Source: Elsinoe ampelina | Taxonomy: Eukaryota | NCBI GenBank assembly: GCA_010093995.1 | Contig: ML992515.1 | Location: forward strand, 363,533-427,532 | DNA length: 64,000 bases | Direction of reading: 5' to 3' | In this document: positions 7,029 to 49,754 of the stretch, piece after piece | Position numbering within the stretch: the stretch's first letter is position 1 | Layout of the letters: each line of letters begins with the position of its first letter | Notes under the pieces: model-generated | What the model was told of the DNA's origin: nothing | The model's database searches: none | Seen by the model: only the letters and a program-made list of their open reading frames with translations | Translations under genes and position numbers: made by a program

Positions 7029-7569
7029 TGAGGCATGCTACTGGTCAAGGGAGAAGGATCAATCGCCCGAGGGTAGGAGGTGCTAATCAGCACGTTGAGA
7101 CGTCAACCACATTGGGCTTCAATGGTAGTAGTCATGCCACTGGAGAGGTACCAGTACGTGCTGCAGGATGTGATGATGACCGCCTCCGGGCAATTCTATG
7201 GCAGTAATTGCGTTTTCTGGTAGTGATTAAAGCCGGCTGGGGCGTGGATAGTGTTATCGATGCCGCTGAAGGCACGACCAGAAGGGCTGGCCGAGTAGAG
7301 TTGAGCCTGAGCCAAGGGTACAGTCTCTGATAGTATTTGAAAGCAAGATACTTGCCATTCTTGACTCTTAGTGCTGTTTCTGCAGGTCGTGATGCTTTTC
7401 CTGGTAGTACCCGATACCCGAAACCTTGGTGGCGACTTTAAGATCCCTCCAGCTGACCGACCTTGATTCCTCTTCACCTCCATCTTTCACACAATATCAC
7501 ACTGGAGAACCCAATAGACACTACCAGCATCCTGCCATCCTGGCAACACAGCCCAGGATCCTTCTCACC

Positions 7570-8307
7570 ATGGAACCAGTCATCAAGCAAGCGAGCACGG
7601 ACGGCACTATGAAGGTTCCACATCAGCCCCACGGCCACTCTCACCACAACCCCTTCATGCTCCCCGCTGAACTCCGCCGGATGATCTGGCAGCATCTCTA
7701 CCGCACCGAGGCACGCATCAGCCTATACTACAGCCGCGCTAGGTTGACCAGAGACGAGCCCAACAAAGACCGCAACCTCCTCGCTTCCGCTCTGCAGTAT
7801 GAAGCGCTCAAAGACGAGATACTCTACGCTCTGTACAAGAGCATCCGCCTTGTCTTCATCACCGAGCGTGCTTTTAGTAGCTTCAGTCGTCGAGTCACAG
7901 CGACTCACAAGGACTTGATATCTTCATTCCTGGTCAAGCAAGACATGTGGCCTCAGAGCTTCTATCCCTACAGAAAATGGCAGCGCATCGGCGAAGCGGC
8001 TGGCACGTTCAGGGGACTGAAAGAGTTGGATTTGGCCATAACGCACACGATAAGCCTACAGCACGGCGTGAATCTTGCGGTGATGCGTCATTTGGTGGAG
8101 TATATGGACGAGGTTTACAAGAAGTGTGAGACGCAGAGGGTGAAAGAGGGCTTTGAGGGGAATGTCCAGATGAGGGTGACTGTGCCGACGCCGCCAGCTG
8201 AGAAGACGTTTGCGTGGAAGGTGAGATGGATGGACGGATTGCAGGGCAATGGACCGTACACGGTTTGGTTCTCAGACTCGAATTGGAGGACATCACGCTT
8301 TGGGTAA
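7570..8307 (+). CDS. F-box-like/2EXR-type protein, array member 2
   Basis: FMLPAELRRMIWQHLY motif; YPYRKWQRIG...F..L matches member 1 YPTDRWVALG...FPNL; first ATG at 7570. Confidence 0.7.
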   Translation: MEPVIKQASTDGTMKVPHQPHGHSHHNPFMLPAELRRMIWQHLYRTEARISLYYSRARLTRDEPNKDRNLLASALQYEALKDEILYALYKSIRLVFITERAFSSFSRRVTATHKDLISSFLVKQDMWPQSFYPYRKWQRIGEAAGTFRGLKELDLAITHTISLQHGVNLAVMRHLVEYMDEVYKKCETQRVKEGFEGNVQMRVTVPTPPAEKTFAWKVRWMDGLQGNGPYTVWFSDSNWRTSRFG

Positions 8308-8881
8308 TTGATCTGGTAGCCGATAGGCGCCCCATACTACCACTGCGTGACCAGAGGTCGATAGTCTGGGAGATCAGAGCATATGGCCGAGAAGCTCGAC
8401 TTTGCCAGGAGGCGATATGCTGGTAATTCACTTGCGGAATAGCTACCAGATCAGGGGGTATGATAGAGGCCTATCGACGGTGTAGTACATCGACCAGATC
8501 CGAAACCAAAAGGCACTACCAGCGAGTCAGAGGCAACGGTGGGACATTGACCAATGTGGGACGCTTCTGGTAGTTCAGTATAGAAGACACGGTTGTACCA
8601 AAAACCGTGAATCAAGAGGTCATGATAAATGAAGGTCTGTGGTAGTTTAAAGGTGCTTTGGCCTACCAGGAGCAATGGGAGACCAGATGACCGCTACGTG
8701 TGGCGTTGGTCCAAGCTTGCCACGATGTTGAAATGCGAGCTCTTCACGCCTGCCTCCCTTGGCTTCACCAACACCATAGCACAATTTCTGGTAGTTATTA
8801 CAGCGATATACTACCAGCTAGTAAGCCGGATAGCCGTGAACTCCTGATCTAGATGCTAATCCTGGTAGGATAATATCCAAA

Positions 8882-9699
8882 ATGCCAGCCATGAAGCGAG
8901 GCTGGTTCGATGAGCACAAGGGGGAGCAGCCCATACTGGTAGTACCTGGTCTGCGGAAACTACCAGAGCGCAGCCACTGACGATACCTCAGCGTTACGAC
9001 GACGACGATCGTCCAGCGAAGAAGGCCAGAATCGGCGACAAGGTCAATCTCCTAGACCTACCAGACGAGATGCTCCAGAAGATATGCATGTACTTCTACA
9101 AGACCCAGTGCTTCCACCTGGTAGTACCTGGCGACCGATTCGAGGCAGCGATTGCGCCGCCACTGGATCGCGAACGGCTCGGCCTTGTCATCACCTGCCG
9201 CCGGCTCAAGAATATGGCCTTATGGGCACTCTACGCTCACTCCTGCTTCATTTTCGGCGGGACCAGAGCCCTCATGGCGCTCGCGATCAGACAGCCAGAG
9301 ATCAAGTACCTCGTCCGACGTGCTGTGATACAGCAAATGTTTGACCCGTACGGCGAGAGCACTACCAGGACAAACTACATGTTCGCTGGACAGCTCCTGC
9401 GACATTTCACTCAGCTCAAACGGGTCTATCTGATGATCTGCCGCCCTCCGGATCTTGCGCTGGCGCCAGATGAAGGAGGATCATATTTTATTGAGAACCG
9501 CCTCACTGAGTACTTCACCAGAGGGTTGAGACTTCCCACAAAAAGGCACGGCGTGTCACAGATGAAAGTGACGGTGGTGGTGCAGGCGAACGAGAGGAGG
9601 GATGATCCTGAGAACGAAGAGGAGCTGGTCATTGGGCAAAAGGACTTGAAGGACGGCAAGATTGTTTTGGGCTGGAACTGCACCGCAGGGATCAGGTGA
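8882..9699 (+). CDS. F-box-like/2EXR-type protein, array member 3 (one predicted intron 8939-8991)
   Basis: Splicing GT(8939)..actgac..CAG(8991) joins MPAMKRGWFDEHKGEQPIL in frame to RYDDDDRPAKKARIGDKVNLLDLPDEMLQKICMYFY; LVITCRRLK helix; NLS-like PAKKAR. Confidence 0.65.
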
Positions 9700-10143
9700 G
9701 CAGTGAGAGGCCCAAGTTCTGGTAGGACCAGTATTGTAGATACTACCAGTTATCAGAGGCGACGGAGGCGGTCTCGTTTGCGTGCAAATTGAAGCTTCTC
9801 ATCCTCAACCATATAACAATGAGATACATCGATGATTGGATTTGCAGACTACCAGGCAGAATCCTCTGGTGGATCCTTGCGAACAAAGAATGAGCATTGC
9901 AATAAGCATCGGAAGAGTGAATGCGCGCAGACAAAGCACTTTGTTGCTGCACAAGAGAGTCACCCTTTGTTGTGTTCGCCATCTTTGGGATGTGTGGCGT
10001 GATCCTGATACATACTGGGGCTGGAGTGGCGTGTGCCAATATCGCGTTCGTGAATTTCGATTTCTGCACACTTTCCACCCCAACATCAACAACCCATCTT
10101 CCGGCGCGCAAAGTCGGTGTCGCACGTCAATCCATTGCACAAG

Positions 10144-11103: not shown

Positions 11104-11567
11104 GGGGGGCTACTGCAAGCAACACACCCAGGGTGGGAAACCTGGCGCTGGTCGATAATGTGTGGGTTGCCTGGTAGTTGCGACTGTGTGGGCGAGGGAA
11201 TTATTCGCCAGATATACCAGTGCCTTCTGCATGATCCAGTGGCTAGGACCCAAATGAGACTTGTATACTACGTTTAGATGATCGTTCCCTCGTATATGCA
11301 GCAAAATCATGTAGCTACAGCCCGGACGTGTGTGATAACTAAGCCGTCACCGTGTGAATCGGCCTGGTAGTATCGAAGCTGGGTGTCGCGGCTGGTTTCA
11401 GGTGGCGTGTACTGGTATCTCGAAGCTTTGTCGGCCTCCTTCTCGCAATCACCAACCACATCGATCTTTTCATCAACATCATCGAAATCACTTCTCATTC
11501 CACGCAGATCCTGCTATCATCGCCATCAATCGCAATGTGGCCTTCGTTGACCAACCCCACTCACAAG

Positions 11568-12744
11568 ATGAAGCCGCCCAAGAATAAGTGTACTCTCAAG
11601 AACGACGGCGTTGTTGACCCTGCCGTCAAAGAAGGCATGACCATACCACGTCGAGCAGAACAGAGTGAACGCGATCTGACTATTCACAGCAGTGCGCGAA
11701 TATCTGGCCGCCGAGAGACGCAGGTTGGGCTTGAGCACTACCACGGAGGACAAGCCGCGGGAATCCAAGAGGGTCACTTTTCGTGAGCCAGACATGGGCG
11801 GGGTAGTCGGAAGGTTCTCGAGCCAGCAAAAGAGCTTGGAAACTACCATCAAGGGGATCGACAAGATGCGCCTATCCAAATCGTCAACAAAGAGATCGTC
11901 GCGCCTCCTACTCCTGCCAGCAGAAATCCGCCGTCAGATCTGGAAAGACGTTTACGCCGGCACAGTGATCATGATCACCGAAACCGGGCACGGCGTGCAT
12001 GATCCGCCCGAATCCGCAAAGGAGCTGTATGAACAGCTCCCTAGTGAGGAAATTCCAAGAGGGGCCACGATCTGGATTCACGGGCTTCCGGGGCAAAGGG
12101 ATTACCGTGGACGACTTGATGGCAAGGAATACTTCAAGATCAGGAAGGAGGTCGAGAACGAAGCCATCCATACCGCTCGCATTCGTCCTGTCCACTCTTT
12201 GGCTCTAGTGTGCAAGTCGATCTCTCAGGAAGCCTTGAGCGCCATGTATGACAACGCAACATTCCACGCCCGAGACTCTGGACGTCTGGAACGATTCGTG
12301 TCTCTGCTGAGTTCTCGTACGATCTCACTCGTCAAGTCCCTTCAGTTCGTCGGGTATGAGGAAAATGATTTACTTCGGCACTGTGGTGAAGTTGAGAAGA
12401 AGGTGCTGGTGCTCAGGCAAGCCGTCAAAGCAATGAGCGGTTTGGAGGAGCTCCATTGCACGTTCTCTGCAGTTACACGGCGGGCACGCTCCGTGATTCG
12501 GGCGGATGCTGAGTGTGCTGAGAGGATTCTGGCCAGCGTCGAGGATGCTTTGCCCATCTCAACCACTAGAGAAGACGGTACACTGTCGCTCCGAAAGTTG
12601 AGATGCACGGTCGTCATCCAGTACCTCGGAAGATCCGATGATTCCGAAGAGATCCCCTGGACGGGGAAGGTCAAAGAAGGACCGCATAGATTCAAAGTCA
12701 TATTCGAGAAGGTTGAGCACCGTTGGATTCCGTGGTTCATTTGA
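11568..12744 (+). CDS. F-box-like/2EXR-type protein, array member 5 (possible GC-AG intron ~11635-11689)
   Basis: LLLLPAEIRRQIWKDVYAG; SLALVCKSISQEALSAMY; SLRKLRCTVVI parallels member 4 SLRSIDCTVVI; upstream exon joins in frame via GC donor, ctgac branch, CAG acceptor. Confidence 0.7.
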
Positions 12745-15700
12745 GTATGAGCGCCGTTGCTGGTAGTACATATCGCCGGTAGTGCGGGTACAAGCATTCA
12801 TCGACGCCAATTTCAATGTATGACTAGGCGTGTGGTAGTACTTCGATGGCGTCGTATAGCCGGGACGCTTCTCGATCGAAGATTCAGCGGACGAAATAGT
12901 TAAAATTTGACCAAATCTCGACAGGTGCGATGCTTCTGTTCTCGTTGGAAGCCGTGTGCCCTTGCACCGTGGATAGTAAGGACTGCTAGAGAAACTACCA
13001 AGGCGCAGCGACTCTGGAATGCAGTTGAGCCAAGTCCTGGTAGGTGGCAATTCCGCTGGTCGTGCTTGCCGGCCATCAAAAAGGACACCCCCTCCGCCTG
13101 ACCACCACTTCTGCGTTCGCTACGGTCGAGGAGAACACAGGTATAGGCGGATTGTCATGCAGCCACGCTTCAGGCATTCCATCTCCAAGGCAGGCCACTG
13201 ACTGCCAGAAAGTCTGACTGCTCGATGCCGGATGCTGGAGAAGGTCCATGCAAACTCATCGCAAGGACGCGCCCCAGTGACGAGAGGCGCGTGGTAGTAT
13301 CTGGGCTCAAGATATCGCCAACCCAAGGACTCTCGGCTTCAGGATTTCGCCGATCGACTGGGACGAAAGAGTGTCCAGACAGTCCCTCATGGTGCGACCC
13401 TAGCGCCAGAAGTATCCGGAAAGGACTTCTGCTGAATGGCAATCTCCCAGATCTCGACCGACCTCCTCTCTACATTCTCAGGCGGCTCACGACTGTGGTG
13501 ACTCAAACGCGATGCTGGCAACAAGCGCCAGATGGCCTAGCGTGTCCCATCATCACAGCGACCTGGTATCCCGCCAGATGTGCCTGGGTCCATATGATAC
13601 AATGTACCCAGCTCTTGGTTCTGCTGGAAGCTTGCTGCGCCCTTGAAGGAACCATTCCGCTACGATTTGTGCAGAAGCTTGAGGGTTGACCCGGCGTGTC
13701 GGTCTTCATTCGACCTTGTACTACTGGCTAATCGAAACGGAGATCGTGGAGGCGTTGTGCTGCTCGAGTGTCGACCAGACGCATGTTGTGAGCATCCGAA
13801 CTCGAAGATCCACTGAGGCCCAAGAAAGCAGGGCCGTCGAGTGAGACGGCTGCACAGGCGTCTGGGGCAGCTGAGAGTCTCTTTGACAGAAGGCTTAGAG
13901 GTAGAACATGCAGCTATAGCGCCATGAATGTCCTGCGTGGTATTCGTCGTCGTGATAGGGATCGATAGCTCGCAGACATTGTTGCTCACATCATCCTTGG
14001 CTAGGTGCTACAGGCAGCGTGCGGCGCCATTTGCGGCGGATGGGGAGTTGAGATCCGCATTCGCTACACGCTACGACGATGGCAGAGGACGTTGGGAGCA
14101 TACAAACATTGCCGACGAGTATTCTGGTTGTAATATAGTCGTGAGAGGATGGGTTGGAGAAAGCCGCACGTGGACCCGACTTGATTTTGGATTAGACTTT
14201 TGCCGAGGCCAGCACCTAGTGCTACATACATGTCCATCATGCACCCTGCTTCTTCCTTGGAGCGCTCGTACATATCAGATAATGCTGGTATACAACTCAC
14301 TTCTTGCTCACCTCCCTGCTCTTGTCTACTGTCATGTGCTGCCTTGGAGCTGGTAGTTCCTCGCCCTTTAGACTACCAGACATGGAGCAGCAAGCCGTTG
14401 GTGTTATTGGTGGTGGCCATAGCTGGTAGTTCCCTCCATCCCAAACTACCTGACTTGATGCAAGCGTCTCACATTGTTCATGCCCTGGTGCCTTGAGAGC
14501 TGGTAGCTTTACTCAAGTAATACTACCAGAAATGTCAATCCCAGGCTGCGTGGAGGGACCAGCCGCCACAATGGCTGCTGTTCTGTTGGAATTCGCGGAG
14601 CACCACTCAAGATTGCACGGAGAAGTACTGCCAGAGGTGTAGCGTACTAACATCAGGAGGAAGGACACAGCTCAATTATTTGGTAGTCCTGGCGGTTGGA
14701 TCTATCAGGTCGACCCATGAAATGGACGGATCTGAATTGCAAAGGCACCCGGCCCGGTAGGCGGGCTCTGCAGAATGTGGAACCGAATCAATCTACACCT
14801 AGAGCCATCGCGGCACCTCGGCCAACAAGACACCTCCGTCACTCCTCATCCGACGAGTCTCTCAACCCAGTTCTTTCCCTCCTTTCCGTTCTCAACCTCT
14901 TCTTCATCTGCTCGTGTCTTGCTGGAGTAGGTCTGAGAGTACCGTGACTTTGTGCTGAATATCTGCTAGTGGCTAGCTCGCAAAGTCTTTGTGAACGAAA
15001 AGGCTCTGCAGCCTGAGCTCAATCATGTTGCATGTGGAAGCGGACTAATGCAGGCGGGGCAAACATCCTTGCAAATCCGATGTCGATCAGTGGCGCAGGT
15101 CGTTGTTGTGGTCCCTGCATTGCCTATGCAAACGATCTACGGACGTACCAGGCTACTAAGGAGCATGTCGGCGTACACTGTACCGGAGGTAGGTCCGCCA
15201 GAGGGGCAGGATTGATACGATGTGCCATGGAAAAGTCTGCCCAGTCTACCTTGCCTGCCCGACCGACCAGAATTCTGCGGTGCTAAATCGGCCAGCATGT
15301 CGTTGCTGTCCAATCGAATGGCACTTTGACTTATCTTGGGCGTGCCTTGTACATCTCAGTGGTTGTCGGATGCCAGAAGCGAATTTTAATATTCCGTGCC
15401 TTCGTCGCACGACGTCACCTGGTCTGTATGGACGACTCAAGAGCGTCCGTGATCAATCTTCAGCTCAGGTCATTCTATCACAACAATCTGTCAGGACATT
15501 TGCGTGGTTCCCCTGATGAACTGGTGCTCATGCGAGCACGGGGCAACGCAGTAAATGGGAAGGACGTGTAGCCCGTGAGGTCGTGCTGCAGCCATATCAT
15601 TGCTGGTGGTGTTGTGGAGGGCGGGGATTGTTGCCGAGGCCCCCGGGTTAGGAGGGGGGAGAGATGTGGGGGTAGGGGGAGTTAGTTGGGGGAGATTGGG

Positions 15701-15842: not shown

Positions 15843-17765
15843 TCAGAATCTGGACTGTGAACCACCATAGCCTTGGAATGGATTCGTACTCGGAGCTGCA
15901 CCGTCATCGAGATCGAATGGGTTGACGCCGGCAAGGTAGTCGGTACCGAGAGGAGAGCGGTTACTACCAGCGCTGAATGAAGTTTGCACACTTGACGTGC
16001 TACCAGCGGGCGGGTTGCTGCGTGGTCGACCAAAGAGGGCGCCAAATGCCTCGCCGGGCGCACTTTTCGGTGCTGGCTTTGGTGGAGGGGGCACATCCGT
16101 TTTACTCTGCACCTCGCCAAACCCTGGTAGTTGTAAATTACCAAGTTTGCTGCCCGAGAGCCCGCTTTTCAGAGGTCTGCTGCCAGAACCGGCCATTCCT
16201 TGGGCAGGGATTGGAGAACCAGGGCCAAATTTTCCCATACGAGGAGATGGAGCGCCGAATACCGGATTTGCAGTACCAGGAGCAGCACCACTGGCCGCTG
16301 GCAATGCGCTCCAAGCGCTGGCAGGTCGCGGAGTTGTGTTTTCGCCTAGATATGGCGCATCTTTCAGGATCTGAGCCTTGAGGGCTCGAACGCGCTCTAG
16401 GCGCGATGCCGGTCGAGTACCGGTATCTTGCTGAACTTCAGTGGCGGATTCGGTGGCGAGCGGCTTGTCCGTCTGTTGGATGTCTGAGAGCTGTTGTCTG
16501 AGAGCAGACCTTTCCTTTGTGGCCTTATTCATCTGTGCCTGGTGCGCTTTTGCTTGATCGTTCTGAATCTGCTGGATCTTGCGGACCTCCCTGCGCCAAT
16601 GGGCGACTTCTGACCGCAGACTGCTCTCGCCCTGTCTCAAAGCAGAGATGTCTTCCTTTCGGCGTCTCTCGTAATCCTGAGCTGCTTCATACAAGCCTTT
16701 GTTGAACATCTTCTCGCGGTCGAACTGTTCGTCCTTCATCCGGCGAAGTCTGGCCTCTGGAGAGCCCTGCAGCTCATGGAGCTGTCTTTGCTCATCGCCT
16801 TCAATTGGGCCTGGTTGATTTTGTCGTATGCCTCCAGCTCTTGGATCTTCACCTGTTGCAAGTTGACTTGGCTTTGGAGTTCTTCACAGGTCTTCTTAAT
16901 ATGTCGAAGAGCCCTTCCCATCGGGGTCTCTGGTTCCGTGTCGGACATTGCTGTAGCGCTGGAGTCTCGTCAATGACCGAACCAGACATGACTGAAATAG
17001 TGACTCACCTACGCTCTGCTTCACCTTCTTGACCAACCTGCACTTCCACATCTTCGACCCTGGACATAGAAGTCCCAAGATTGTCGTCCGCCGAATCAGC
17101 TCTAGCTGTGTGTTCGAGCGCCTGGTCCTTCTTTCGATCTGCTTTTCGGGCCATGTCGATCAGTGTCACCATGGCATCCTCCACCTGATGCAACGACCAA
17201 GCTCCATGTCCGTCGTGCGTGATACCAAGGTCCTGGAGAACTTCCCTGACAGACTGTTTCAATGGATAAAACCGTTGTGACCAGTATGTTGACGCCAGAT
17301 CCTGAGCCAGAACACGTGGAACAATATCTTCTCCTTCGCCCGGAATGTGGAGGCCCAAAAGACGTCCTTGATGCCGGCCTAGAAATTTTTCGAATCGTTC
17401 TGCGGATGTTTCATCATCTCCGTCGTACTGTTCGGCTACGGTGATGATTTGTTCCACAAAATCCTGGCGTGTTGCCTCGACATGTGCCTGCCAGGAGCGA
17501 CAACCGGCGGCCATGCACCTTTCTTCGACGATGGCTGTAGCTTCAGGATTGAGCCCAATTGTATCCATATTATGGCGGAGCTGGGTGACACGTTCGAGCT
17601 TCCTGTGATTCATCTTCATCAGCATGCTGTAAAATGCACCAGGTTCTGGTAGTGCTGTTGCTTTTCAACTACCAGGCCGGAGGAAGGATCTTACCTCAAA
17701 TTTGCAACTGCCTCCCAGAGAGATGCATCGTAATCTTCCAGCGTGATGGGCTTGGTTGAACTCAT
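15843..17765 (-). pseudogene. Orphan coiled-coil protein family A, copy A1 (two introns, one frameshift near 16790)
   Basis: ATG 17765; GT-AG introns 17627-17694 and 16959-17008 join ORFs 17005-17625 and 16736-16948 in frame; continuing into ORF 15843-16739 needs a frameshift; N-domain (VEERCMAAG, TYWSQRFYP, HDGHGAWSLHQVE) matches ORF 23466-25700. Confidence 0.7.
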
Positions 17766-18510: not shown

Positions 18511-18623
18511 GTCTCACCTATCACATCCGTCTCATCTATCACATCCGTCTCATCTATCACATCCGTCTCATCTATCACATCCGTCTCATCTATCACATCC
18601 GTCTCATCTATCACATCCGTCTC
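18511..18623 (+). repeat. 18-bp tandem repeat (GTCTCATCTATCACATCC) x ~6.3
   Basis: Six consecutive units, only the first with one mismatch, plus a 5-bp partial unit; ~115 bp upstream of the B1 ATG. Confidence 0.97.
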
Positions 18624-18737: not shown

Positions 18738-20608
18738 ATGGTGTCGGCTACCAAGGCCATGTCCAGCGATGATCAGCCACCTCCCGAACCGGCACCTCTT
18801 GTTGATGCTCGCTACGTTACTAGTCGCACCGCCAACGCCCTCAACATACTACTAAGTGATCTCACGGAGGCCTCCAAAGCCATCAAAGACCAAGGCACCG
18901 ATGCAGACACTCTAGATGCGGCCGCAGAGGCGGTCACAGAAACAGCAAACGAGGCCAAAGATCTGTTGCGAATGCTCAGGAAAGGTATGGAAGCAAAGCT
19001 ACAATCCTCACAAACATTAAAAAACAGAGTCGTCACCGGTCTGGAGGCTGCAAGTAGCTCGATCGACTCCTCTGCGACCGCCACAGTAGAGGCTCTCGAC
19101 AAGATGGAAAAGGCCACAAGCGCTGCTGTGGAGCGATGCGAGCAGATTGGCGACGTTCAAATTGACCTCACAAACCTTGTAAACGGTGACACTCCACATC
19201 AGCAGGCGTACATGGGCAAGATTCAGGCAATCACAGAGGACATGACGACGTACTATCAACAAGCGTCGAATGACCGCCAATACTTTGTCAATCCAATCGA
19301 CAGACACCCCAACAAACAGCTCACCCAGAGCCGTCTCCAGCATGTTGTGGACGAGAGTTTCCGGCGCCTCATCCAGCCAGCTCTCAGCAAACTTAACTCA
19401 GAAGCCATCCACACCGTCGAGAGTCGCCACCAGGAGCTCATCCAACTTCATGCAGAGGCCGAGCGTCTAAAAACTCAGAATGGACAGCTATACCATCAGC
19501 TTAGCATCGCGACTGGAACAACTGGTGGCAGTTTGGTGGAGACCGACAATGCACAGATGACACAAGTCCAGACCTCCAACCAAGAGCTACGTGCAGCATA
19601 CTCTACACTACTTCAGACCCATGCAACTCTGCAGGCCGAATATGAAAATGCCATGAAAGAGGGAAGGAGGATATTCTCGGAATTGGAATCAGTGAAAAGG
19701 GAATTCCAGCAACTTCAGACCAAATCTCAGGACTACGAGCAATCTAGTGGTCAACAGGTTCTCAATCTCGCCAATCAACTCAGGCAAGAGCAAGAGAAGA
19801 CCCGTAAGCTGCGTTATGACAACGAAGATTTGATCTACAACCAAAACAAGTACAGGTACAGGGAGAGGGCTCATCGAGTGGAGAGTAATATCGAGCTGCC
19901 CGATATCAGTACGTCACGGCTCCGACGACAGGAGGATCATGAAGATTTCCTGGAGGGAGGTTCTGCTCGTCCCCGGAAGCATGGAGCATCGTCGCCGGTG
20001 GGAGCCCACAAAAGCGCGTCAACAGGGTGGTCGTTGAGGCCGACGTGTTGCAATCCTTGATAGCGCAAGCCGCGGACACTCAGAACAGAACTGGTAGTAA
20101 CCAGAGCAACGACGGCATCACTGCTACAGGACAAATCGACTTCGACAATGAACTGGAGCAGCTCGTCCACCAGTACCGCGACCGGGCGCACATTCCTGCT
20201 GGAGTGTGGCAATCTCTTGTCCCCTACAATACACATACCTCAGGGACTAGGTATACCGCTGGCGCTGCACAGAGCCACATGGAAGCGTCAGGCGCAAGCG
20301 TACTCGGTAGACCGGAGCTTGAGAACCAGCTAGCACCACAACCAAATCCCAGCACTCTACGCACCTTTGGCGGTCCACCGCAACATTCAGGCGTTAGCAT
20401 CTTCAATCGAACAGGCTTTCCTGTCACAGAAACTCGTCCCCAACCTGGTGCGTATGATGGCTCGGCTAGCAAGACCGAAGGGTCTCCCGCGCCGAGATAT
20501 GTGCGATTCGATGAAACGCCCAAGCCAACGACAATGGCTTCCTCTTGCCGCCTAACAATCCAGTCAGGTCGGCCCTCCGCCTCCATCAGCCCTTTCGGGT
20601 CATCTTGA
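18738..20608 (+). pseudogene. Orphan coiled-coil protein family B, copy B1 (frameshift near 20010)
   Basis: 440-aa coiled-coil ORF continuing in another frame as KRVNRVVVEADV...; shares RTANAL/RTLDAL, LQH......IQPALSKL/IQH......IAPELQKM and RKHGASSP/KRGATSP with B3. Confidence 0.6.
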
Positions 20609-20789
20609 TGCTTTCGCTACGACTGGGAGGACATATATACCCCTTCGCGGAGGTCCTAGATTTCCTTTCTCCGTAGTTCAATTACATGGTTAGCATTTTT
20701 TCTATAGAAAAACAGTAATGACAACCCTTTTCGATAATCATTTGTCAGTATGTTAGCTATAGACACAGAAATCAAAAACAGTATTCTTA

Positions 20790-36500: not shown

Positions 36501-39288
36501 TAGTAAGATTAACATCTATTAAGCCTTCTACTACCTCTATAACTCTATTAATAGTAAAGACCTTACTATATTCTCTATACGCATAGGTAACTTTAAGTAG
36601 TTAGTAATACTATTTAGCCTTACTAACGCCTCTATAGTATAGTAGAGGTTTATAAATTATAACTTTATTAATATACTTAAGCGCTTTGTGTTAATCTATC
36701 TTAATAATATTCTTATCTATACCGACGGCACTTGCTAAAAGCATGCTAAGTATATTAAGCTAGTACTCTAATATCTCTACGATTTAGGCCTAAACGCTAA
36801 TATTAAGAAGAGCAAGTTCTACCTAATAGAAGTAAAGTATCTTAGTATTATTGTTAGTCGAGATAGAGTTAAGATAGATCTAAAGAAGGTCGAAGCTATA
36901 TAAGCCTAGAAATAACTAGCCTCTAGTAACACTACTTAGGTAAGAAGCTTTATTAGTTTCTATAGCTACTATCGCTACTTTATTAAGGAATTTAGCACTA
37001 TTACTAAGCTGTTAAATAACCTACTTAAGAAGAACGCTACGCTATAGAATAATAAGTATACTACTATATTTAACTATATAAAGTATACTATTACGAGTGT
37101 CTCTATCTTAGCGTACTTCGATTACTTAAAGTAAGTAGTCGTCGAAACTAACGCCTCTAACACTACTACCGCTAGGATTCTATTGTAATATAACAATTCT
37201 AACGTCCTCTAGCCCGTTACCTTCTTTAGTAAATCTATAAGTAAAGCCGAATATAACTATATAATCTACAATAAGGAGCTATTAGTAATTGTCTAAGCCT
37301 TTAAGGAATAGGCCCCTAAGCTTATAAGTACTTAATCTAATAAGGCTATTTACGTCCTTACTAACTACTAATCCTTAATGCATTTTATAAAGACTTAGAA
37401 GCTATTACGCCGCTAAGCGCGCTAGGCTCTTTACCTTACGTAGTTTAACTTTAAGATTATATATAGGCCTAGCGCTGCTAATAGTAAGGCTAATATACTT
37501 ATAAGGAGAAATAGAGATATACTACGTTTGAAGGAAGACCCTAATCTACGCTAGACGCTATTGCTATATAAAGTGCTAGATTAGCGCATTATCGACGAAC
37601 TAAATCTAGGTCGTATCTAAGCTAGATTACTAATCTAGGCTAAACTAAGATCTAGTTTAGCACCTATTTCGCCACCTATTTTGCCGCCTATTTCGGCTTA
37701 TAAGCTAGGCACCTATATAGTACCTATCTCCGCTATAGAAGAGCCTTTACCCCTTTTTAATAAAGTAGCTAAAGCTAACTTACGAGACTTTAACTTCGAG
37801 ACAGTTCGTAGCGTCTACTATATAATAGAAGCCTTCCTAAAGAGGAAATAGTTACTATTAACTAATGTTACAATTAAGAAGAGAATACTATACACTACTA
37901 GCCGATTAATTGTGCCTTTCTCTATAGCTATAAAAGTTATCTAAGGAGTCTATATATCGAAGAATTATACACATAGAGGGGCTACTAAGACGGCTACTAT
38001 AATTAAGTCTACTTTCTATATCCCTAGGTGTAATTCTAACGTTAAGAGGTTCGTCGCTAACTATTACAACTATAAGCGCTTAAAGGCTCGCTATAGCTTA
38101 CTAGCTAGCCCCCTATCGCTATTGCCTATTCTAGTTAGGCCCTAGCAATATATTACTATAGACTTCGTTACTAGCCTACCTCTAGTAGATAGCTATAACG
38201 TAGTACTATATGTTATTAATCGCTTATCTAAGGAACGACACTTAATCTCTTACTTCTAGAGAGAAGAAGAAACCTCTATATTCGAGACAGCTAAGCTATT
38301 ATTCTTCTATATATAGAAACTATATAGCCTACTAGATAGTATCACCTTAGATTGTAGCTCTTAGTTCGTTAGCGACGTATAGAAGAGACTCTACTAAATC
38401 CTAAAGATTACTACTAAACTATCTACTATAGGGTATCTATAGATAGACGGCTAATTAGAGGTTATAAATCGTAAGTTTAAGCGAGTTATTTGTTTATACG
38501 CTACACGCTTTAGTAATTAGACTCTTATTCTACTAGTTATAGAGTTCTCTACTAACGTTAACCTATTAGAGAGCACTAAGCTATTACTATTCGAGGTTAC
38601 TAGAGGATATAAGCTAAGGCTAAGCTTTTAACTCCCTTCCGATACACTATTAATAAGAGCTAAGCTAAATAAGATCGACATCCGTGCACTTGCTAAACAA
38701 CTAGAAGAAGCGCTAGCTATTACTAAAGCTAACCTCGCTATTGCCTAATTACGTATAGTAGAATAAGCTAATAAGTACTACTAGCTAATAGAGTTTAAGG
38801 TAGGTAATTTAGTATAGTTATTAACAAAGAACCTCTAGCTATATAGTAATCTAAAGCTACTACTAAAACACGTTAGTCTATATAAGATCCTTAAGAAGTA
38901 GTTACTATTAGTATATAAGCTAGATCTACTAGCTACGCTACAATAAATCTACCTTATATTCTATACTAATCTACTTACTAAGCATCTAAATAACTCTCTA
39001 CTAGGCTAAGCCTTTAAGGAACTACCTCCGATAGAAGTTAATAGTAAAGAGAAATACGAGGTAGACGACGTAGTTAATATACATATACTACATAGTAAAC
39101 TAGTTACTTATATAAGCTAGAAGAGCTATCCGGAGAATCTTATCTAGTGGCTAATTAACAATCTTAAAGGAGTAGCCGATATACTACGTAACTATCTAGA
39201 CTCTTATATAGATAAGCTAAGGCCGAAATAGATTAATAAATAATGTATAATAGTGTTTAAGAGTAAATACACTTAAGAGAGAAAGTAG

Positions 39289-39492
39289 TAATATAAGATA
39301 GATACAAACTAGATTTAGTTAGGATATAGTTTAGATTAGTTACGTAATCTCGGCATTGTAGCCCGGGCTTCCGGCCGCTCCGCCCTTAATATTACGTGTG
39401 CTTTATATACTAGCTTTTCTTCTTCTTCTTCTAAGTCTTAATATTTTAATAAATAGATATAATTAACTCTCTTACCTTACTAGTCGTAATTA
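39289..39492 (+). repeat. 3' LTR
   Basis: Direct repeat of 33301-33504; differences I checked are C/T or G/A transitions. Confidence 0.95.
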
Positions 39493-39839
39493 CTTATCCT
39501 CTAGATAGTAGAGTAAGTAACCTTAGTAGTACTATAGATAGTATAGTCTAAATAGCTTTTAGCTAGAAGAAACTCTATATTAGCTAATTTAGCTAGAGTA
39601 ATTTAATAGTTTACTATACTAGCTATTATATCTTTTTTTAGCTTTAAAAATCAAGTAATTAACGATAATTACAACTATAATCTATCTAGACTTCTAGCTA
39701 GCCAAATTTGGTAATGCAACGTCTTAAACGATCACGCCAAGCCTGGGGGTGGCTCGTTTGAACTAAAAAGCCCTGTACCAGATTTCGAGCAGGGGGGACG
39801 GGACCTCGGCTGCCGCCACATCAAACCAGAAATTTGTGA

Positions 39840-42248
39840 CGAATTCCACACACACCGCACGACAATTACTACCAGAGCAACCATGGTTTCGCAGAACTTC
39901 AGTCAGAGGTCGATCGGACGCTGGATGCTCTTCGAAGCTGGCGAAAGGCACTGTTGTACGACCAGCAAGCCATCGCGCGAGGTGCGGCGACCGACGAAGA
40001 GCGAGATGCCTTGATGATGGCGTCTGCAGCAATCCTGGAGAATCTGCAACAGGTCGCCCAGCAGATCCGGAGACTGGTCGACAAGAGCCACAATGGGACT
40101 AGACCAGGCACGGACATTGAGCAAAACCTGCAAGCTGGCATCGAGAAGAATCTCGAATATCATGAATTCGTCGCCCACAATATCGAACAGCTGGCTGAAG
40201 GAGAAACCGAGGCACAAAGGGCGCAGGACAGATTGCTCAACCATGTATCTTCACGTATTACTACTATGGAGGATCGTGAAGAACAAAACTTCGAATTACT
40301 GTCCAGTCGTATCGAGAACTACAGCACCAAAGTGCTCGACCAAGAAGACATCCAGCACCTCATCACATCATTGTATCAAAGTCATATCGCACCCGAACTC
40401 CAGAAAATGCATCAAAGCTACCGTAGTGCCATCACTAGACAGAATGCTGAGATCGGCGGCCCTGGCACTGGCATGGCAGACTATGAGACGATCAAACGAC
40501 AGCGTGATGAGCTGCAACAGACAGTCCGGGACTTCCAGAATATCGATGAAGAGGCGGCAACAAGCCAGCTCACTGGATTACGATTCGAACTGAACGAGTT
40601 GAAGCGTCAAAATGACATGTTGAAGCTCGAAGTTGCTCAGGCCAAAGAGCGAGCGGACGAGGCTGAAGCGGCGAATCAGAGACACAGTGCGGAATGGAGG
40701 AACATTCTGGACTTGCAAACACGCAAAGTGGACCGACTCGTTGACACGGAAAAGCGACAGGGGCACGAGATCAAATTACTCACAGACAAGAATACCAAGT
40801 ACCGGCAGAGCACCAGCGATCTTCACAAGGAATTAGAAAGAATCCGCAGCGAGCGTGAGGATCAACGAAGACAGAAGAACCACTACAAGGATATTCTTCG
40901 CAGGAACGGCCTACTAGAGGAGATGGATGAACCTGTGGATCTTGATGCTCCGCTCGTCGAAAGTGTTCCCACACCCACCAAGCGTGGAGCCACGTCTCCA
41001 GCCAGCTCGTTGAAAATAAAACGACAACGATCCGATACTTCGCTGCTTCTCAGGGAGGAAAGTCTCGCCACTAAGATTACCCAGCAACTTGCGGAGCGCT
41101 TTGGCATGCAGCAGATGGGATTCCAGCATCAGCAGCAACCATCAACTCTTGGGTACCAATTCGGTCAGAACACCTCGCCCGGCTTTGCTCAATTTGGTCA
41201 GAACACATCGGCGACCTCTCTCGGATTTAATCCAGGTATCCCAGGAAACCCTTTTGCGCCTCTCCCTGGTGTCGCTCAAGGTCAAGCAGGCACAAGCAAG
41301 CCATTCGGGAGCGTACCTGTCCCCGGTCCTACTACGGGTGCCTTCTCCAAGTGGCGTGACCATCAAGAGAAGTCCCAGCAAGATACACCAGTTCCTGAGT
41401 GGGGTACAATGGAGTCTGAACGTCAATTCGAATCACCTGTACCGCCGTCCGAAGCTGCTAGCGTGGATGATATCATCAGACCGTTCGTAGAGGGTACTCC
41501 AGGTGGGGGCACACCTCAGCAGAACACCTCACGCAAGGTCCTACCCCCTGCTCCTTCAGAGTATCCGCCAAGGTCGTTGTCACCAAAGAAATCTGCCCCG
41601 AATCTTGGTAACACTTTACCCTCAAGGAATCCCGCTACTACCAAACCAGTGAGGACGAATGCCCCGCTTCCTGCTGCCACCAACCCACCGTCACGTAGTC
41701 TGAGAAGCAGAGCCAGCATGCCCAGCGTTCAGCAGCCACCGGCGTCACCTCCACATCCTACCAGATACCATGTCACCGATGTCTTCATCAATGAGGAGTC
41801 CTGGATCAATGCTTCGGTCCCTAGCGACACGAACAAGAAACACATCCTCGACGTCAAGCAGGCAGCTTGGAATGGAACGCCGCTCGATACTTAGGCTCGC
41901 AAGAGCAATCGTTTGTTCATGGCTGTAAATAGGGGTACCAGATGCATGAACTCGATAAGCAAGGGGCCATGGTTGGGTGGTAAGGAATGGACGTACGAGC
42001 AGGCCATGAGTGGAGAGAAGTGCCCGCATGATGAAGTTACTACCAGATTATGTGTCTTCTCGCAAGACAAGGAGGTCGAAACGGCTGAAGACGTCGTCAA
42101 GCTAGGCGTTATTGGACTGCCGCAACGCGTGATGAGCAGGCCAGGGTCAACCAGGAGCGCGAGAATAACTACCAGAATTGATCCATCTGGTAGTTTTAGT
42201 GATAAGAAACCTGTGTTTTTAGAATCCGTGTCTGTGCCCCCCACCTGA
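39840..42248 (+). pseudogene. Family B copy B3, near full length, with in-frame premature stop at 41892-41894; start uncertain
   Basis: ORFs 39954-41894 and 41913-42248 are in the same frame (..PLDT*ARKSNRLFMAVNRGTRCMNS..) and align continuously with B2; frame open from 39840. Confidence 0.8.
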
Positions 42249-42254
42249 ATCGTT

Positions 42255-42590
42255 CCCCGGGTAGTTCTACGAGAGGAATACTACCAGGTCGCCTGGCTTA
42301 CCTTACTGAACTGTCTTTGTATCTACAACCTAGTAGTTTCGCGAGAAGAATACTACCAGACCGCATGGCTTATCTTAATGACCTACCTCCCTGCCTGAAA
42401 CCTAGTAGTATTATATTCTAGGTACTACTAGCTTTACTGCTTTACTGTCTCTACCTAAATCCTACTGTTTTACTTCTAGTAGTTTTACACGGAGAATACT
42501 ACTAGGTTGCCTAGCTTACCTTAGTGACCTGTCTCTATGCCTATAACCTAGTAGTACTACTTCTTAGGTACTACTAAGCTACATAGCTTA
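42255..42590 (+). repeat. CTGGTAGT-dyad minisatellite downstream of B3 (left part, increasingly RIP-mutated)
   Basis: gagaagaatactaccagaccgcatggcttatctt..cctccctgcctgaaacctagtagta matches 20814-20882; dyads with 14-nt spacers at 42258, 42330, 42402. Confidence 0.85.
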
Positions 42591-42899
42591 TTCTTGCTCC
42601 TAAAAATCCTAGGATAAGCTTAGTAATCTAGATAGCTACGCATACTAAAATCTACTAATATTAGTCTATTTTATGAATTATATATCTATTTCGTATCTAT
42701 TTAAGGCCGAACTAGTCTATACTATTAATCTATCTTAGTAGCTAAGCTAGACATCTATCTAGCACAACTTTAACTCTATCTTAGCTACGAACTAGACGCG
42801 AGCTAGATCGACACTTCTATAGCGCCGAGTCTATCTTAGCTATCTATCTAAGATTAATACGATCTCTAAGCCTTTTTTAAGGATAGAAGAATAATAGAT

Positions 42900-46209: not shown

Positions 46210-46525
46210 TACTTGCCCTTGTCTGCTGTCCCGTCACCTTTGGCCATTCTATCAGAGAGACCACCAGCCCGCATGGGTTTCCTTGTAGCCTGTCTCCCTG
46301 CCCAAATCCTGGTAGTAATACCTCTCAGGTACTACCAGCTCTTTGCAGCTTCACCTTGTCTGTCTGCGATCTGCTCCTTCAAGTCTGATAGTATTCGGCC
46401 GCAAGATCCTACCAACTGTGCTCATGAGTCCGGTCTGCCTCTCCTGGATCTCCGAGTGTGCACTGGAAGGTACTGACAGATTGCATTCTCCACTAGGCCC
46501 AACCGTTTCTCCTTCTACATGATCT
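46210..46525 (+). repeat. CTGGTAGT-dyad minisatellite (right part) plus the array-terminal segment
   Basis: Perfect dyad 46309-46338; cgcaagatcctaccaactgtgctcatgagtccggtctgcc..ttctccttctacatgat matches 21670-21793. Confidence 0.85.
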
Positions 46526-47113
46526 GTGAAGTGGAAAAGAGAGTGAAAGTCGAATGTAAGGAAGCGGTCTTGCAATCAAGGACTTAGTCTTCATGTGGAA
46601 TGACAGACGAGTAAGTAGTCAAATCCCATGTCAGATTCAGTCCCACTCGTCCAATTCCCCCATAGATCCGAGGAACTCCCCTCCCTGTCTTGAGTCCACG
46701 AGCCGGTCACGATGATTGTAGAAGGGGAGCCAATCTTCTCCAGCAGGAGCAAAGGAATCACGAGAGATGCATAGCATCGTGTTACAGCCCGGGTTTACTC
46801 TGAGGAGGGACTGGGAACGTATGAGAAGTACAACACCATCAGAAGGAACCCCGATCTGTAGACAGCCGTCTGAAGATTCCAGAGCCGCATTTGCCGAACC
46901 TGCATGACCGTCACGTGCGACTCCAGCATCCTGGTAACAAAAATCCTGGCAGCGGCACACGGAAGACATCCGCCTTCCCGGACCATACAGCGCGACCGAG
47001 TGGGGCAAAACCGCCGACGGTGAGTGGTAGACAGAGCTATCACTCTTTCATTTTCACATCACCTCCCTACTTTGTCAATATCCACAACCATTATACGGGC
47101 TTCACTGGCAAGC

Positions 47114-48454
47114 ATGAGCACCCACACGAGATTCACCGAGAATGATGGCCAAGCCTATGCGTATGAATTCCACGACTACACTGCTCTGGGGGCTCCTTCT
47201 GGTGCGACTTGGGCTAGCCAGCGTGCTGGCCTTCTTGAATATGAGAGAAAGAAGGTCTTGAAGGAAGGGTGGAGAGCCATGTATGACTGGCTTGTGAGGA
47301 CACTGGCAGACCACGAGAAGCAGAAAAGAGGTGACTCACTAGTCATCGACCACCACGTCCTCTTGTCGCTGGAAGAAGAGGCCTTGTGCAGATCTCGGAT
47401 CCTCCATGCTGCTGCAAAGGTCGCGGAACAGAGCGCCTTCAACGGCGGCAGCATTCCCACGACAGATATCAACAAAGCCACTGGCCAGATGACAATCAAA
47501 AGCTCTCTACAGCCTTCAAAGCGCAGCGTTGCGCTCGATCAGACGAGCGGCAGCGCAGGCGAACACAACATAACGGATGCGGTTTTGATTGAGAGCTTGA
47601 ACACGCAGAAGGCACGACTCAAGATCCATGGCTTCAAGGAAGAGATCTCAATGCAGTCCAGTAGGATTCAGCACATGCTGACGGTTCAACGCGAGAGGCA
47701 TCAGAGTCTGTTCGACGTCATGATCGCCGCACTTCTTGCTGCATTCGCCGCCGAGCAAGCTGGAGCCACGTTCCAGAAGGCTTTGAGCGACTGGTACATC
47801 AAAGAGGTTCAAGCGGCGGCGCTGAGTGGCCAACCATGTGATGGACGCAAGGTCGCCTTCCATGAAGAAGTGCGTGGGAAATCCGGCTCGGCCAACGCTG
47901 GTGCAAAGACCGGAGGCGAGGAAACAGACTATCTGGAAGATAATGGTTATTACGAGGCTCTGGAGGATTCGAGGGAGTTCGAGACCAGAATCACGACTAT
48001 GGTGAATGTACCCATGAACCTGCCGACCCGGGAAAGGCGTCAGCAGGTGCTGGCTCGTATTCAGCAGCTGTTCCGCAGTTCAACTCCAGCTGTTGAAGCA
48101 CCACCACCTCCTCCTCCTCCTCCAGAGCCGACACCGCAAGAGCGATACATCGCCAGGAGGAAAGCGTGGATGGAGCAACACAGGAGGAAGCCGATCGACT
48201 TCGACACGCCTGTCAAAGCCGAAGACAGGCTCCCACCCCGCTCTCCCCTTAATTTCAAAGGCGGGAGGCACCCTATCCAAGACCCATGGGAGCGTTTTTT
48301 GTGGGACAACTTTGACGACATCACCGGCGGTCCCATCATCAAGCCGCATCGGACCAAGGAGGAAATCGCCGAGGATATAGCGGGCGTGAAGCAGGCCTAC
48401 TACGACTCCCAGGCCGCGCACCGCTTCCGCATGAGGCACCAGTTCGGGCTGTGA
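47114..48454 (+). CDS. Orphan hypothetical protein (446 aa from first ATG), helical with poly-Pro linker
   Basis: Long intact ORF with coding-like composition; no recognisable motif. Confidence 0.65.
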   Translation: MSTHTRFTENDGQAYAYEFHDYTALGAPSGATWASQRAGLLEYERKKVLKEGWRAMYDWLVRTLADHEKQKRGDSLVIDHHVLLSLEEEALCRSRILHAAAKVAEQSAFNGGSIPTTDINKATGQMTIKSSLQPSKRSVALDQTSGSAGEHNITDAVLIESLNTQKARLKIHGFKEEISMQSSRIQHMLTVQRERHQSLFDVMIAALLAAFAAEQAGATFQKALSDWYIKEVQAAALSGQPCDGRKVAFHEEVRGKSGSANAGAKTGGEETDYLEDNGYYEALEDSREFETRITTMVNVPMNLPTRERRQQVLARIQQLFRSSTPAVEAPPPPPPPPEPTPQERYIARRKAWMEQHRRKPIDFDTPVKAEDRLPPRSPLNFKGGRHPIQDPWERFLWDNFDDITGGPIIKPHRTKEEIAEDIAGVKQAYYDSQAAHRFRMRHQFGL

Positions 48455-49754
48455 GGCGTGGAGGAAGAGTGGAGTGAGCTCTAGTCTGCATAGGAGCAGT
48501 AGATGAAAAGTGAATGTAGTTATGGCCTTGCTCTTGCATCGAATCCAGGCATCTGATGTCAAACGTCTCTTCCAGGACCACCTTCGTGCGCTGCTGACAG
48601 CCGGGAATTACCACCCGTAACGATGACGCGCTGTATTTCCCACGCCATAGCGCCGAACCACGTGGTATGCTAGTTGACGATGCGATTGAGGCGTTCCAGG
48701 TGGCCCCTCAGTTGGGGCTGGTCGTGCGCGGTGCAGGATGGTGTAGGATGATGTGGGAGATACTACCACTTACGCAGCTAGTTGTAGTATGAAGCCTTGT
48801 GGCTACGCGAAGCCTTCTCGACATGGGAGACTGATTTCGATGCGATGCGCAGACATCCCCAGCAGAAGTACCAGGTGCTTAGCATGTGGTAGTACTTGAT
48901 TGCTGGCCTCGCCGGGAATTTTCAGTCATCGTCAACATTTCAAAGACCAGAGTAGAAGATCGGTGCAGAAGATTCCAAGCAGATACTACCAGGTGCGTAG
49001 TATGTAGTAGTGTCAGATCGCTGGCCTCGCCGGAAGATGTCATCTATGGTCATCGTCCTCAAGATTGCAGCAGCACATCCCCAACAGATACAACCAGACA
49101 AGATGGAGTGGATGCAGATGGGCAGGTCTGCATCAGACCTCTTTGCTGGTGTGATGGTGATCCCTACCGGGAGAAAAGCTGAATGTACTACCAGTACCGT
49201 AGTCCTTCGTGTAGGACTTTGCACGAGCGTTGAGAAGTGCACCACCTGGCAGGTATTCAAGCAAGGGATACAAGCGCCCTGGAGCAGTCAAGCGTCCTGT
49301 CAGCCTTGAGAAATCCATTACGAGCGATGTCATATTCGCTTCAGTGACATCTTCGCCTCTAGAGGTGGCAAACGGGCACAAGCGTCGGATGCCAACCCAT
49401 TGCCAATTCACAGCTAGTCCAGAACAAAGGACTCGGGCCAGTGTCGAGGTAACCAATTGTCATTTCGGATCAACTGCCAGGTCTGACCATCCTGGTCGGA
49501 ACAGGGTGGTGGTATCTGGGAGCTGTCAAGGGTGCAAAACCTGGGATCGAGCAGGCACTGATCACAAGGAGCAAGGAGGTGGAAGTGAAGCCCGATGTAG
49601 CAGAATGCAAAGCCGGATAACAAGTCACACGTTCCAGATCAAATTTCCTGATGTGACCGCGTAGGGATTGGCCAATCGGCATGTATTCAGTGATTCCTGC
49701 GAACCATCAGGCCGGCTATACACTGCAATCGATACAAGGCGCACGTCAGACCTT

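Follow-up and report, generated by a model that had tools for sequence, protein, structure and literature searches.

A 64,000-nucleotide stretch of Elsinoe ampelina DNA (contig ML992515.1 of assembly GCA_010093995.1, positions 363,533 to 427,532 of the forward strand; here called the window) contains an island, at approximately 7 to 49.7 kb, that is dense in a single 8-bp word, CTGGTAGT or, on the other strand, ACTACCAG. Copies of the word pair as inverted half-sites around a spacer of 14 or 15 bp, and the resulting dyads recur in arrays. Part of this pattern is an ordinary family of 72-bp repeats, and the conservation of the word, judged from the sequence, points to a word selected for recognition by a protein. 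We favor, with a probability of roughly 45%, the reading that selection maintains the words as recognition sites of a protein that binds DNA sequence specifically, probably as a dimer, and that the arrays would be homotypic clusters of such sites.

The enrichment of the word is real and statistically overwhelming. Counted on both strands, the exact word occurs 49 times in the whole window. Shuffled versions of the window contained CTGGTAGT 2.16 times on average (standard deviation, 1.44; maximum, 6), and none of the 100 shuffles reached 49. A first-pass annotation of this DNA had claimed at least 45 exact copies between 7.2 and 49.2 kb, with about one expected by chance in some 29 kb of DNA free of repeat-induced point mutation (RIP). 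We counted 47 copies between 7217 and 49194, all in the 28,900 bases of non-RIP island DNA, where Markov models of orders 1 to 3 predict 0.62 to 3.94 (3.9 under the third-order model). The remaining two copies, at 1286 and 53195, are the same two that the annotation had noticed in the flanks, and 0.38 to 0.70 are expected under these models in the 21,700 bases of flank DNA. The flanking housekeeping genes do not contain the word. The claim that the word marks the island holds against these 21.7 kb of flank within the window, which are the extent of the comparison.

At each k from 6 to 10, the top-ranking k-mer of the island was the word. The island has 27 copies of the related sequence CTGGTAGTA and the flanks have none; for the core TGGTAG, the counts are 88 and 17, respectively. 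The consensus of the 49 oriented sites has this core and extends to about CTGGTAGTAYYT; the extended consensus is common to solitary half-sites, too. It contains no CGG triplet, in keeping with the earlier remark that the word is unlike the CGG-based sites of Zn2Cys6 regulators.

The half-sites are paired with a fixed geometry. With up to one mismatch allowed, the half-site set used for spacing comprised 74 forward and 86 reverse copies. Among the 25 forward-to-reverse spacers of 0 to 80 bp, a length of 14 bp was found 14 times, 15 bp five times, 13 bp once, and five other values once each. The annotation had proposed a constant spacer, and the histogram indeed peaks at 14/15. All of the perfect dyads that it had claimed were found in place (8788, 14350, 17646, and 46309 with a 14-bp spacer [N14]; 8936 with a 15-bp spacer [N15]), as were all of its near-perfect dyads, and additional near-perfect dyads were identified at 14423, 20801, 21358, 29926, 42476, 42548, and 46385. 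The frequent inverted pairing described earlier stands as to its N14/15 geometry but not for most of the copies: a partner that matches at 5 or more of 8 positions stands at N14/15 for 20 of the 49 exact words, while the other 29 are solitary, with no partner better than 4 of 8 at that distance. Some of these 29 are array members whose partner has decayed, and approximately 22 lie outside arrays.

Reverse-to-forward spacers bunch at 41 to 47 bp (17 cases), which implies a dyad period of approximately 72 to 74 bp. Dyads repeat at this interval in about six arrays, and the distances between copies of the core TGGTAG peak at 21 to 24, 69 to 80, 93 to 100, 121 to 132, and 145 to 152 bp. Half-site centers are 22 to 23 bp apart, a distance that would correspond to about two helical turns, and a period of about 73.5 bp would correspond to about seven, which would put successive dyads on one face of the DNA.

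To what extent the arrays are copies of one repeat depends on the array. An nhmmer profile built from four units and then iterated, together with alignment, revealed 12 to 14 head-to-tail units that are homologous over the entire 72 bp, with conserved blocks beyond the half-sites. They lie at 20.8 to 21.6, 30.0, 42.26 to 42.57, and 46.25 kb, with weak matches at 8787-8878 and 14490-14530. These units are copies of one degenerate 72-bp tandem repeat, and their dyad spacers are therefore related. Tandem Repeats Finder (TRF) detects the 72-bp period at 42270-42409 only. In the arrays at 20.8, 42.25, and 46.26 kb, which we call young, half-sites, spacers, and inter-dyad DNA are all still similar. 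The young arrays are 74 to 81% alike, compared with 65% for the neighboring paralogous gene segments, which argues for recent spread or homogenization. Moreover, the arrays beside the two paralogs have the same absolute orientation, though the genes themselves are inverted.

The arrays at 8313-8966 and 14350-14529, which we call old, keep only the period and the half-sites. Half-site identity is 109/144 in the first and 46/48 in the second (0.76 to 0.96), while spacer identity (0.44 and 0.45) and inter-dyad identity (0.53 and 0.51) are at the level that this measure returns at random (0.39 and 0.50, respectively). Taken over old arrays and solo dyads, spacer identity is 0.39 to 0.45 versus 0.39 at random. 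The old arrays escape both TRF and self-BLAST, and hence they do not form a separate young subfamily. When the word was masked, 39 of the 49 sites had no flank homology to the 72-bp unit. The retention of the word and its spacing while the rest of the old arrays decayed argues for selection on the word itself. The annotation had called the dyad spacers unrelated; this is correct for old arrays and solo dyads but not for the 12 to 14 units homologous across 72 bp. A single repeat with homologous spacers, which it had set against its own reading, describes about one quarter of the copies, those that are whole copies of the 72-bp unit.

The most probable alternative is that the words have no function and were left behind by a selfish tandem repeat, a 72-bp minisatellite or dispersed repeat whose spread was due to unequal exchange, segmental duplication, and ectopic gene conversion, with the dyad as its best-preserved or latest-homogenized part. 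We regard this as unlikely, though it deserves to be taken seriously, since it accommodates the homology of the 12 to 14 units with their conserved blocks besides the half-sites, the greater likeness of the arrays (74 to 81%) than of the adjacent paralogous segments (65%), the constant array orientation beside two inverted paralogs, and the decay of island genes. It accounts for the young arrays but not for the old, because in the latter the half-sites alone keep their identity. Neutral decay cannot leave half-sites at 76 to 96% with spacers and inter-dyad DNA at random, gene conversion would homogenize whole units rather than 8-mers, and approximately 22 solitary words lie outside any array.

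Under the reading that we prefer, the word would be read in double-stranded DNA by a sequence-specific protein, and the outlasting of the flanks by word and spacing is the footprint expected of such direct reading of the duplex. The putative protein would prefer to bind as a pair on inverted half-sites with centers 22 to 23 bp apart; the center-to-center distance of about two turns suggests a dimer or a two-domain reader. Sites would have been seeded largely by the 72-bp tandem repeat, with one dyad per unit, and the repeat would have spread through the noncoding DNA of the island by unequal exchange, segmental duplication, and conversion, as the likeness of the young arrays relative to the neighboring paralogous genes and their single absolute orientation suggest. 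As an array aged, everything except the half-sites and their spacing would decay, these being kept by selection on the word. The arrays might then serve a lineage-specific block of orphan genes as enhancer-like, insulator-like, or baculovirus homologous region (hr)-like clusters. They might act as enhancers, as boundaries beside RIP blocks, or as origin- or tether-like elements. The observations behind this proposal are the enrichment, spacing, and periodicity of the word, its differential conservation, its noncoding location, and the lack of RNA-type covariation described below; protein binding, dimerization, and any downstream effect are what they would lead us to infer.

Several points weigh against this reading. 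The slots compared in the identity test were picked partly by the presence of the word, and the arrays may owe their periodicity to the ancestral repeat instead of to selection. No simple promoter rule describes the sites, as two arrays lie between convergent 3′ ends and several first sites begin 6 to 31 bp past stop codons, and the gene for a 991-amino-acid (991-aa) protein has no site nearby. Several island genes look decayed by frameshift or premature stop, which makes strong selection on their regulation less obvious. Finally, none of the 22 plus 84 open reading frames (ORFs) scanned yielded a Pfam domain of the DNA-binding or recombinase type. The annotation's proposal of a site for a dimeric protein is partly supported, by the kept word and spacing, the uncompensated arms, and the absence of target-site duplications and of an RNA family, but no binder, recombinase, or regulator was found to go with it.

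The features of the island, in window coordinates, are as follows.

7122 to 49194, unstranded: motif-rich domain, the non-RIP DNA of the lineage-specific island, with a DUF7730 gene to its left and the imidazoleglycerol-phosphate dehydratase (IGPD) gene to its right.

7217 to 7527, unstranded: three solitary exact half-sites (7217, plus; 7401, plus; 7520, minus) before the ATG at 7570 of a 2EXR/DUF7730-like ORF.

8313 to 8966, unstranded: old array of nine slots with a period of 72 to 75 bp and one 107-bp step, including the perfect dyads 8788 (N14) and 8936 (N15); it occupies the gap between two plus-strand ORFs and begins 6 bp past the stop codon at 8305-8307.

9719 to 9855, unstranded: dyad 9719-9749 (one mismatch, N15), which starts 20 bp past the stop codon at 9697-9699, and exact half-site 9848.

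11171 to 12767, plus strand: solitary exact half-sites 11171, 11364, and 12760, in the gaps flanking the DUF7730 ORF 11680-12744.

14350 to 14529, unstranded: old array of three dyads, 14350 (perfect), 14423, and 14500, with a period of 73 to 77 bp.

17646 to 17675, unstranded: perfect N14 dyad in the first intron (17603-17694, minus strand) of a gene at approximately 15.8 to 18.2 kb.

20796 to 21700, plus strand: young array of at least nine units of the 72-bp repeat (nhmmer E values, 3e-21 to 3e-9), between convergent 3′ ends (plus-strand ORFs ending at 20060 and 20608; minus-strand gene with its stop at 22046).

23217 to 23243, plus strand: two exact direct half-sites 19 bp apart, 50 to 70 bp upstream of the ATG at 23167 of a minus-strand orphan gene for a 373-aa protein, separating it from a divergent plus-strand gene; the paralog of the 373-aa gene has a similarly placed site at 39868, 146 bp upstream of its annotated start.

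29926 to 30088, minus strand: short array of the 72-bp family, with a dyad at 29926 (13-bp spacer) and exact halves at 30001 and 30056 (nhmmer 30085-29992, E value 5e-16), adjoining the left edge of the first RIP block.

42168 to 42600, plus strand: young array of five to six units (TRF period, 72; nhmmer E value, approximately 1e-20) that begins about 10 bp past the ORF 41895-42248 and has the RIP-type word in its right part.

46238 to 46400, plus strand: short array with perfect dyad 46309 and degenerate neighbors, on the right margin of the second RIP block; it corresponds, as a segmental copy, to 20823-20946 plus 21670-21796.

48718 to 49194, unstranded: loose cluster of exact words 48985 and 49187 and five one-mismatch words, in the interval from the 3′ end of ORF 47024-48454 to that of the IGPD gene.

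With respect to genes, 43 of the 47 island words lie outside intact reading frames. Ten are in long ORFs, six of them beyond a frameshift or in-frame stop; only those at 9118, 9361, 22583, and 22967 lie in frames continuous from a start codon. Thus, the intergenic and intronic copies that the annotation had described were recovered, but coding copies are few (4 of 47 in intact frames), and a strong enrichment in coding DNA is withdrawn. At 7 to 13 kb, the sites occupy gaps between tandem plus-strand ORFs. The first site lies 6 to 68 bp past a stop codon at 8313, 9719, 11171, 12760, 20091, and 42258, and the gap sites at 7 to 13 kb are also 50 to 620 bp ahead of the next start codon. The arrays at 20.8 to 21.7 and 48.7 to 49.2 kb are the two located between convergent 3′ ends.

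Contigs of four runs (X3, X4, X5, and X6) bear on the intronic copy. Those of X3, X4, and X6 join 17601/2 to 17694/5 and skip 92 nucleotides, bounded by GT and AG on the minus strand, that contain the dyad 17646-17675, which confirms the intronic copy; the X5 contig reads through this stretch unspliced. The idea that a dyad is itself a mini-intron of 27 to 28 nucleotides was rejected, as it would be too short for one and would leave the frames unjoined at 8939-8966. Eleven single-letter differences were found between runs, none of them in the exact word, where only about 0.1 would be expected. In the 5′ leader of the plus-strand gene divergent from the 373-aa gene, one X3 contig reveals an intron at 23437-23503, and X6 has a similar joint at 23431-23502; the intron opens with GTAGTA, six letters of the inner part of the motif. 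A 10.2-kb X3 contig is collinear with the DNA from approximately 3.9 kb to 14121, with no joint, across at least five ORFs and the array at 8.3 to 9.0 kb, and could be read-through RNA, overlapping transcripts, or DNA. Contigs of the four runs barely cover, or miss, the array parts at 14337-15670 and 21007-21673, from which we draw no evidence. Contig ends at 20627-20737 and 22008-22044, together with adapter-like loose ends in X3, were not used as transcript ends.

The sites could instead be copies of a tiny mobile palindromic element, akin to a miniature inverted-repeat transposable element (MITE) or a bacterial repetitive extragenic palindrome (REP) and inserted by a nuclease or transposase whose gene would lie elsewhere or in the island, such as the 991-aa protein. 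A unit of 30 to 31 bp with 8-bp inverted ends, found in introns, untranslated regions (UTRs), and intergenic DNA, would fit such an element, and so would two leads that are both below their reliability bars, a T5orf172/GIY-YIG resemblance (0.78) in the 991-aa protein and an IS1595 match (E value, 0.023) in the 373-aa protein. We nonetheless consider this explanation quite improbable. The 5-bp flanks of the five perfect dyads contain no direct repeat and thus no target-site duplication, the inner 14 to 15 bp differ, so that the dyads are not copies of one another, and 29 of the 49 words are solitary. A MITE or foldback transposon was rejected for the same lack of target-site duplications and because internal sequence is common only to the 12 to 14 young units. 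Nor were clustered relatives found elsewhere. An exact-dyad scan of a metagenome collection without fungal genomes returned at least 119 loci; among those listed, 112 had only their own two half-sites, 7 had one extra, and none had a second dyad, which is the chance level. Viral contigs, again in a collection without fungal genomes, yielded 12 single dyads and no clustered relative. Among the papers listed by full-text searches for the word as 8-mers and 10-mers, there were only primer-type matches and no description of it.

A signal acting at the level of RNA has a similarly small chance of being correct. Here, the word would be a stem-loop or protein-binding sequence in 3′ UTRs or past poly(A) sites, with a role in bidirectional 3′-end formation, termination, or mRNA control. 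The many first sites 6 to 68 bp past stop codons are compatible with this idea, as are six exact words in 3′ UTR-like or decayed coding tails and the fact that a palindrome reads alike from both sides between convergent genes. The dyads do not evolve like stems, however. Among 31 variable arm positions in 19 imperfect dyads, 24 break pairing, 4 give G-T pairs, and 3 give Watson-Crick pairs, the last being RIP changes on both arms. This prevalence of breaking changes indicates that sequence is kept rather than structure. Further, both orientations are present in transcripts (six versus four among the sense strands of the 10 ORF-embedded copies), solitary halves cannot fold, Rfam gave no match, and the flanking housekeeping genes are without the word. 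A structured RNA (hairpin, snoRNA, or tRNA-like) was rejected for want of compensatory change and of Rfam or ARAGORN matches, ARAGORN having found no tRNA genes. A C/D snoRNA cluster was likewise rejected, as the box-C-like stretch varies between units (by eye) and Rfam has no match, and so was a tRNA-like or primer-binding-site-like origin, as the acceptor pairing is wrong for it and ARAGORN gave no hit.

Slightly less probable again is that the dyads are recombinase sites, which would shuffle or invert the paralog-rich segments in the manner of a shufflon or mobilize the whole island. In favor of this are sites in both orientations that separate paralogous genes or lie at their ends, arrays whose orientation does not follow that of the genes, and a 71-bp stretch from the 3′ end of the IGPD gene whose two copies enclose the right half of the island. 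Yet the spacer of 14 to 15 bp is unlike the crossover regions of tyrosine recombinases, which are 6 to 8 bp, the scanned ORFs yielded no recombinase domain, and the contigs of the four runs have intron-type joints only. A tyrosine or serine recombinase core site was rejected on the first two of these grounds. Chance or a compositional artifact is refuted by the 100 shuffles, with their maximum of 6 against 49, and by the third-order Markov expectation of 3.9 against 47.

We compared the island with known systems of dispersed short sites. In passages of two reports on baculoviruses (PMC4535591, PMC2834656), hrs are described as several dispersed arrays of tandem units of about 64 to 72 bp, each with an imperfect palindrome of 24 to 30 bp, that serve as enhancers and replication origins through IE1. 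This is the closest architecture that we found: the island has a 72-bp unit with a 30- to 31-bp dyad in about six arrays, and its arrays have the unit length and imperfect palindrome by which hrs are defined. IE1 binds as a dimer. The island differs in being part of a cellular fungal chromosome whose neighboring genes have spliceosomal introns, in keeping only the 8-bp arms of the palindrome, in having many solitary sites, and in its unrelated sequences; the 106 ORFs scanned yielded neither a viral nor an IE1 family. The resemblance is therefore an analogy of architecture and not membership.

Zn2Cys6 cluster regulators of the Gal4/AflR type use inverted half-sites with a fixed spacer, usually of 0 to 11 bp, across one gene block. 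The island sites are similar in being inverted half-sites with a fixed spacer that recur in the noncoding DNA of one block. They differ in lacking CGG, in their spacer of 14 to 15 bp, in their number (47 copies plus degenerate ones in tandem arrays), and in lying also between convergent 3′ ends and in an intron, and no regulator gene was found in the block. A Gal4-type site was rejected on the absence of CGG/CCG triplets from the consensus. The MATE element of Aspergillus nidulans, related to AMA1, is a transposon of 6 kb that has terminal palindromes and target duplications and carries dozens of copies of one 8-bp “Spe-motif” and ORFs without known homologs. The island word is different from the Spe-motif, and ends of the MATE type were not seen here. 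Subterminal repeats bound by transposases (En/Spm TnpA), bacterial REPs, and DNA uptake sequences are also short, dense words in both orientations, often as inverted pairs. Unlike such En/Spm- or REP-type systems, the island has no transposon ends, target-site duplications, or transposase, and its motif-rich domain extends over about 42 kb with a dozen genes. By analogy, the feature of the island would be an instance of homotypic binding-site arrays, a known kind of architecture.

The island is flanked on the left by MBOAT and GDSL lipase genes and on the right by genes for IGPD, a methylguanine methyltransferase domain, an aminotransferase, and a SNF2/RING helicase. Within it are four 2EXR/DUF7730-type ORFs and several long ORFs without a Pfam family; a full-text search for 2EXR/DUF7730 gave nothing relevant. 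Among 1.84 billion representatives, the 373-aa protein (minus strand, 22046-23167) matched only itself and its paralog in the window. Large protein collections returned only its own 374-aa record for the 991-aa ORF (plus strand, 26219-29191) and only its own record for a 717-aa ORF. As none of the three families searched has outside relatives, the island is lineage specific by these searches. Residues 450 to 991 of the 991-aa protein resemble Ascomycota-only look-alike Atlas clusters (0.92 to 0.95); its Atlas lead to T5orf172/GIY-YIG was not confirmed by Pfam at E values up to 10. The C-terminal domain of the 373-aa protein (minus strand, 22049-22450), with CxxC, gave an Atlas lead to DUF3716/DUF8257 (0.90 to 0.91) that Pfam did not confirm, and the subthreshold match of this C terminus is to an IS1595 transposase zinc ribbon (15.1 bits versus a cutoff of 25.4). 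An AlphaFold2 model of the 374-aa C-terminal protein (P0001), computed without an alignment, had a predicted local distance difference test score of 37.7 and was unusable.

Three island genes look recently broken. In the gene at 15.8 to 18.2 kb (break at 16736-16883), the spliced frame has 295 codons up to its stop, and a 346-aa ORF follows in a different frame. Past the frame 18738-20060, and overlapping it (break at 19943-20060), comes a 221-aa ORF in a different frame, even though the contigs are collinear with the DNA. In the paralog gene at 39840-42248, an in-frame TAG at 41892-41894 cuts the conserved C-terminal domain, and the downstream ORF is 59% identical to the paralog. A near-perfect 18-bp tandem repeat (6.3 copies, 98% matches) at 18511-18623 lies immediately upstream of the left end of the plus-strand gene contigs (which start at 18594 in three runs) and overlaps it.

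The window, from a genome of filamentous ascomycete type, has a GC content of about 0.52 to 0.56, except in two AT-rich, RIP-type blocks at approximately 30.1 to 39.7 and 42.4 to 46.2 kb (0.25 to 0.36). In these blocks, the RIP-type form of the word is about as frequent as chance predicts (7 versus 6 to 9 expected and 2 versus 2 to 3 expected), which indicates that they are separate insertions rather than motif-bearing DNA. Enrichment of this form across the blocks was rejected except at 42390-42600, where an array enters the second block and 5 copies were found versus 0.4 to 1.1 expected. The first block contains an LTR (long terminal repeat)-like direct repeat of 214 bp (86%; 33298-33511 and 39286-39498, about 6 kb apart), and a 165-bp inverted repeat (75%) lies at both of its edges (30217-30381 and 39615-39777). 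The direct duplicate of the IGPD gene 3′ end mentioned above (29421-29491 and 49742-49812, 91.5% identical) brackets the right 20 kb, with both RIP blocks, the paralog at 39.8 to 42.2 kb, and ORF 47024-48454, and suggests that a single insertion or duplication brought in the right half of the island.

How fungi handle lineage-specific regions of orphan genes as units, through co-regulation, facultative heterochromatin, and fast turnover, is poorly understood. If the word were genome-wide or a mere satellite, it would belong to an ordinary repeat family. In the window, a single word of 8 to 10 bp is about 20- to 70-fold overrepresented in one orphan-gene region, with a fixed dyad geometry and helically phased arrays. 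A bolder idea, which we consider improbable, is that the word is an island-specific “address code” of a dedicated dimeric protein that would recruit chromatin, replication, or recombination machinery to the orphan genes. Such a code would be a cellular counterpart of viral hr or family-of-repeats (FR) arrays, or a fungal equivalent of Polycomb response elements, and would mark lineage-specific DNA for joint silencing or activation. A 30-bp probe would offer a cheap experimental handle on the reader protein and on what it recruits.

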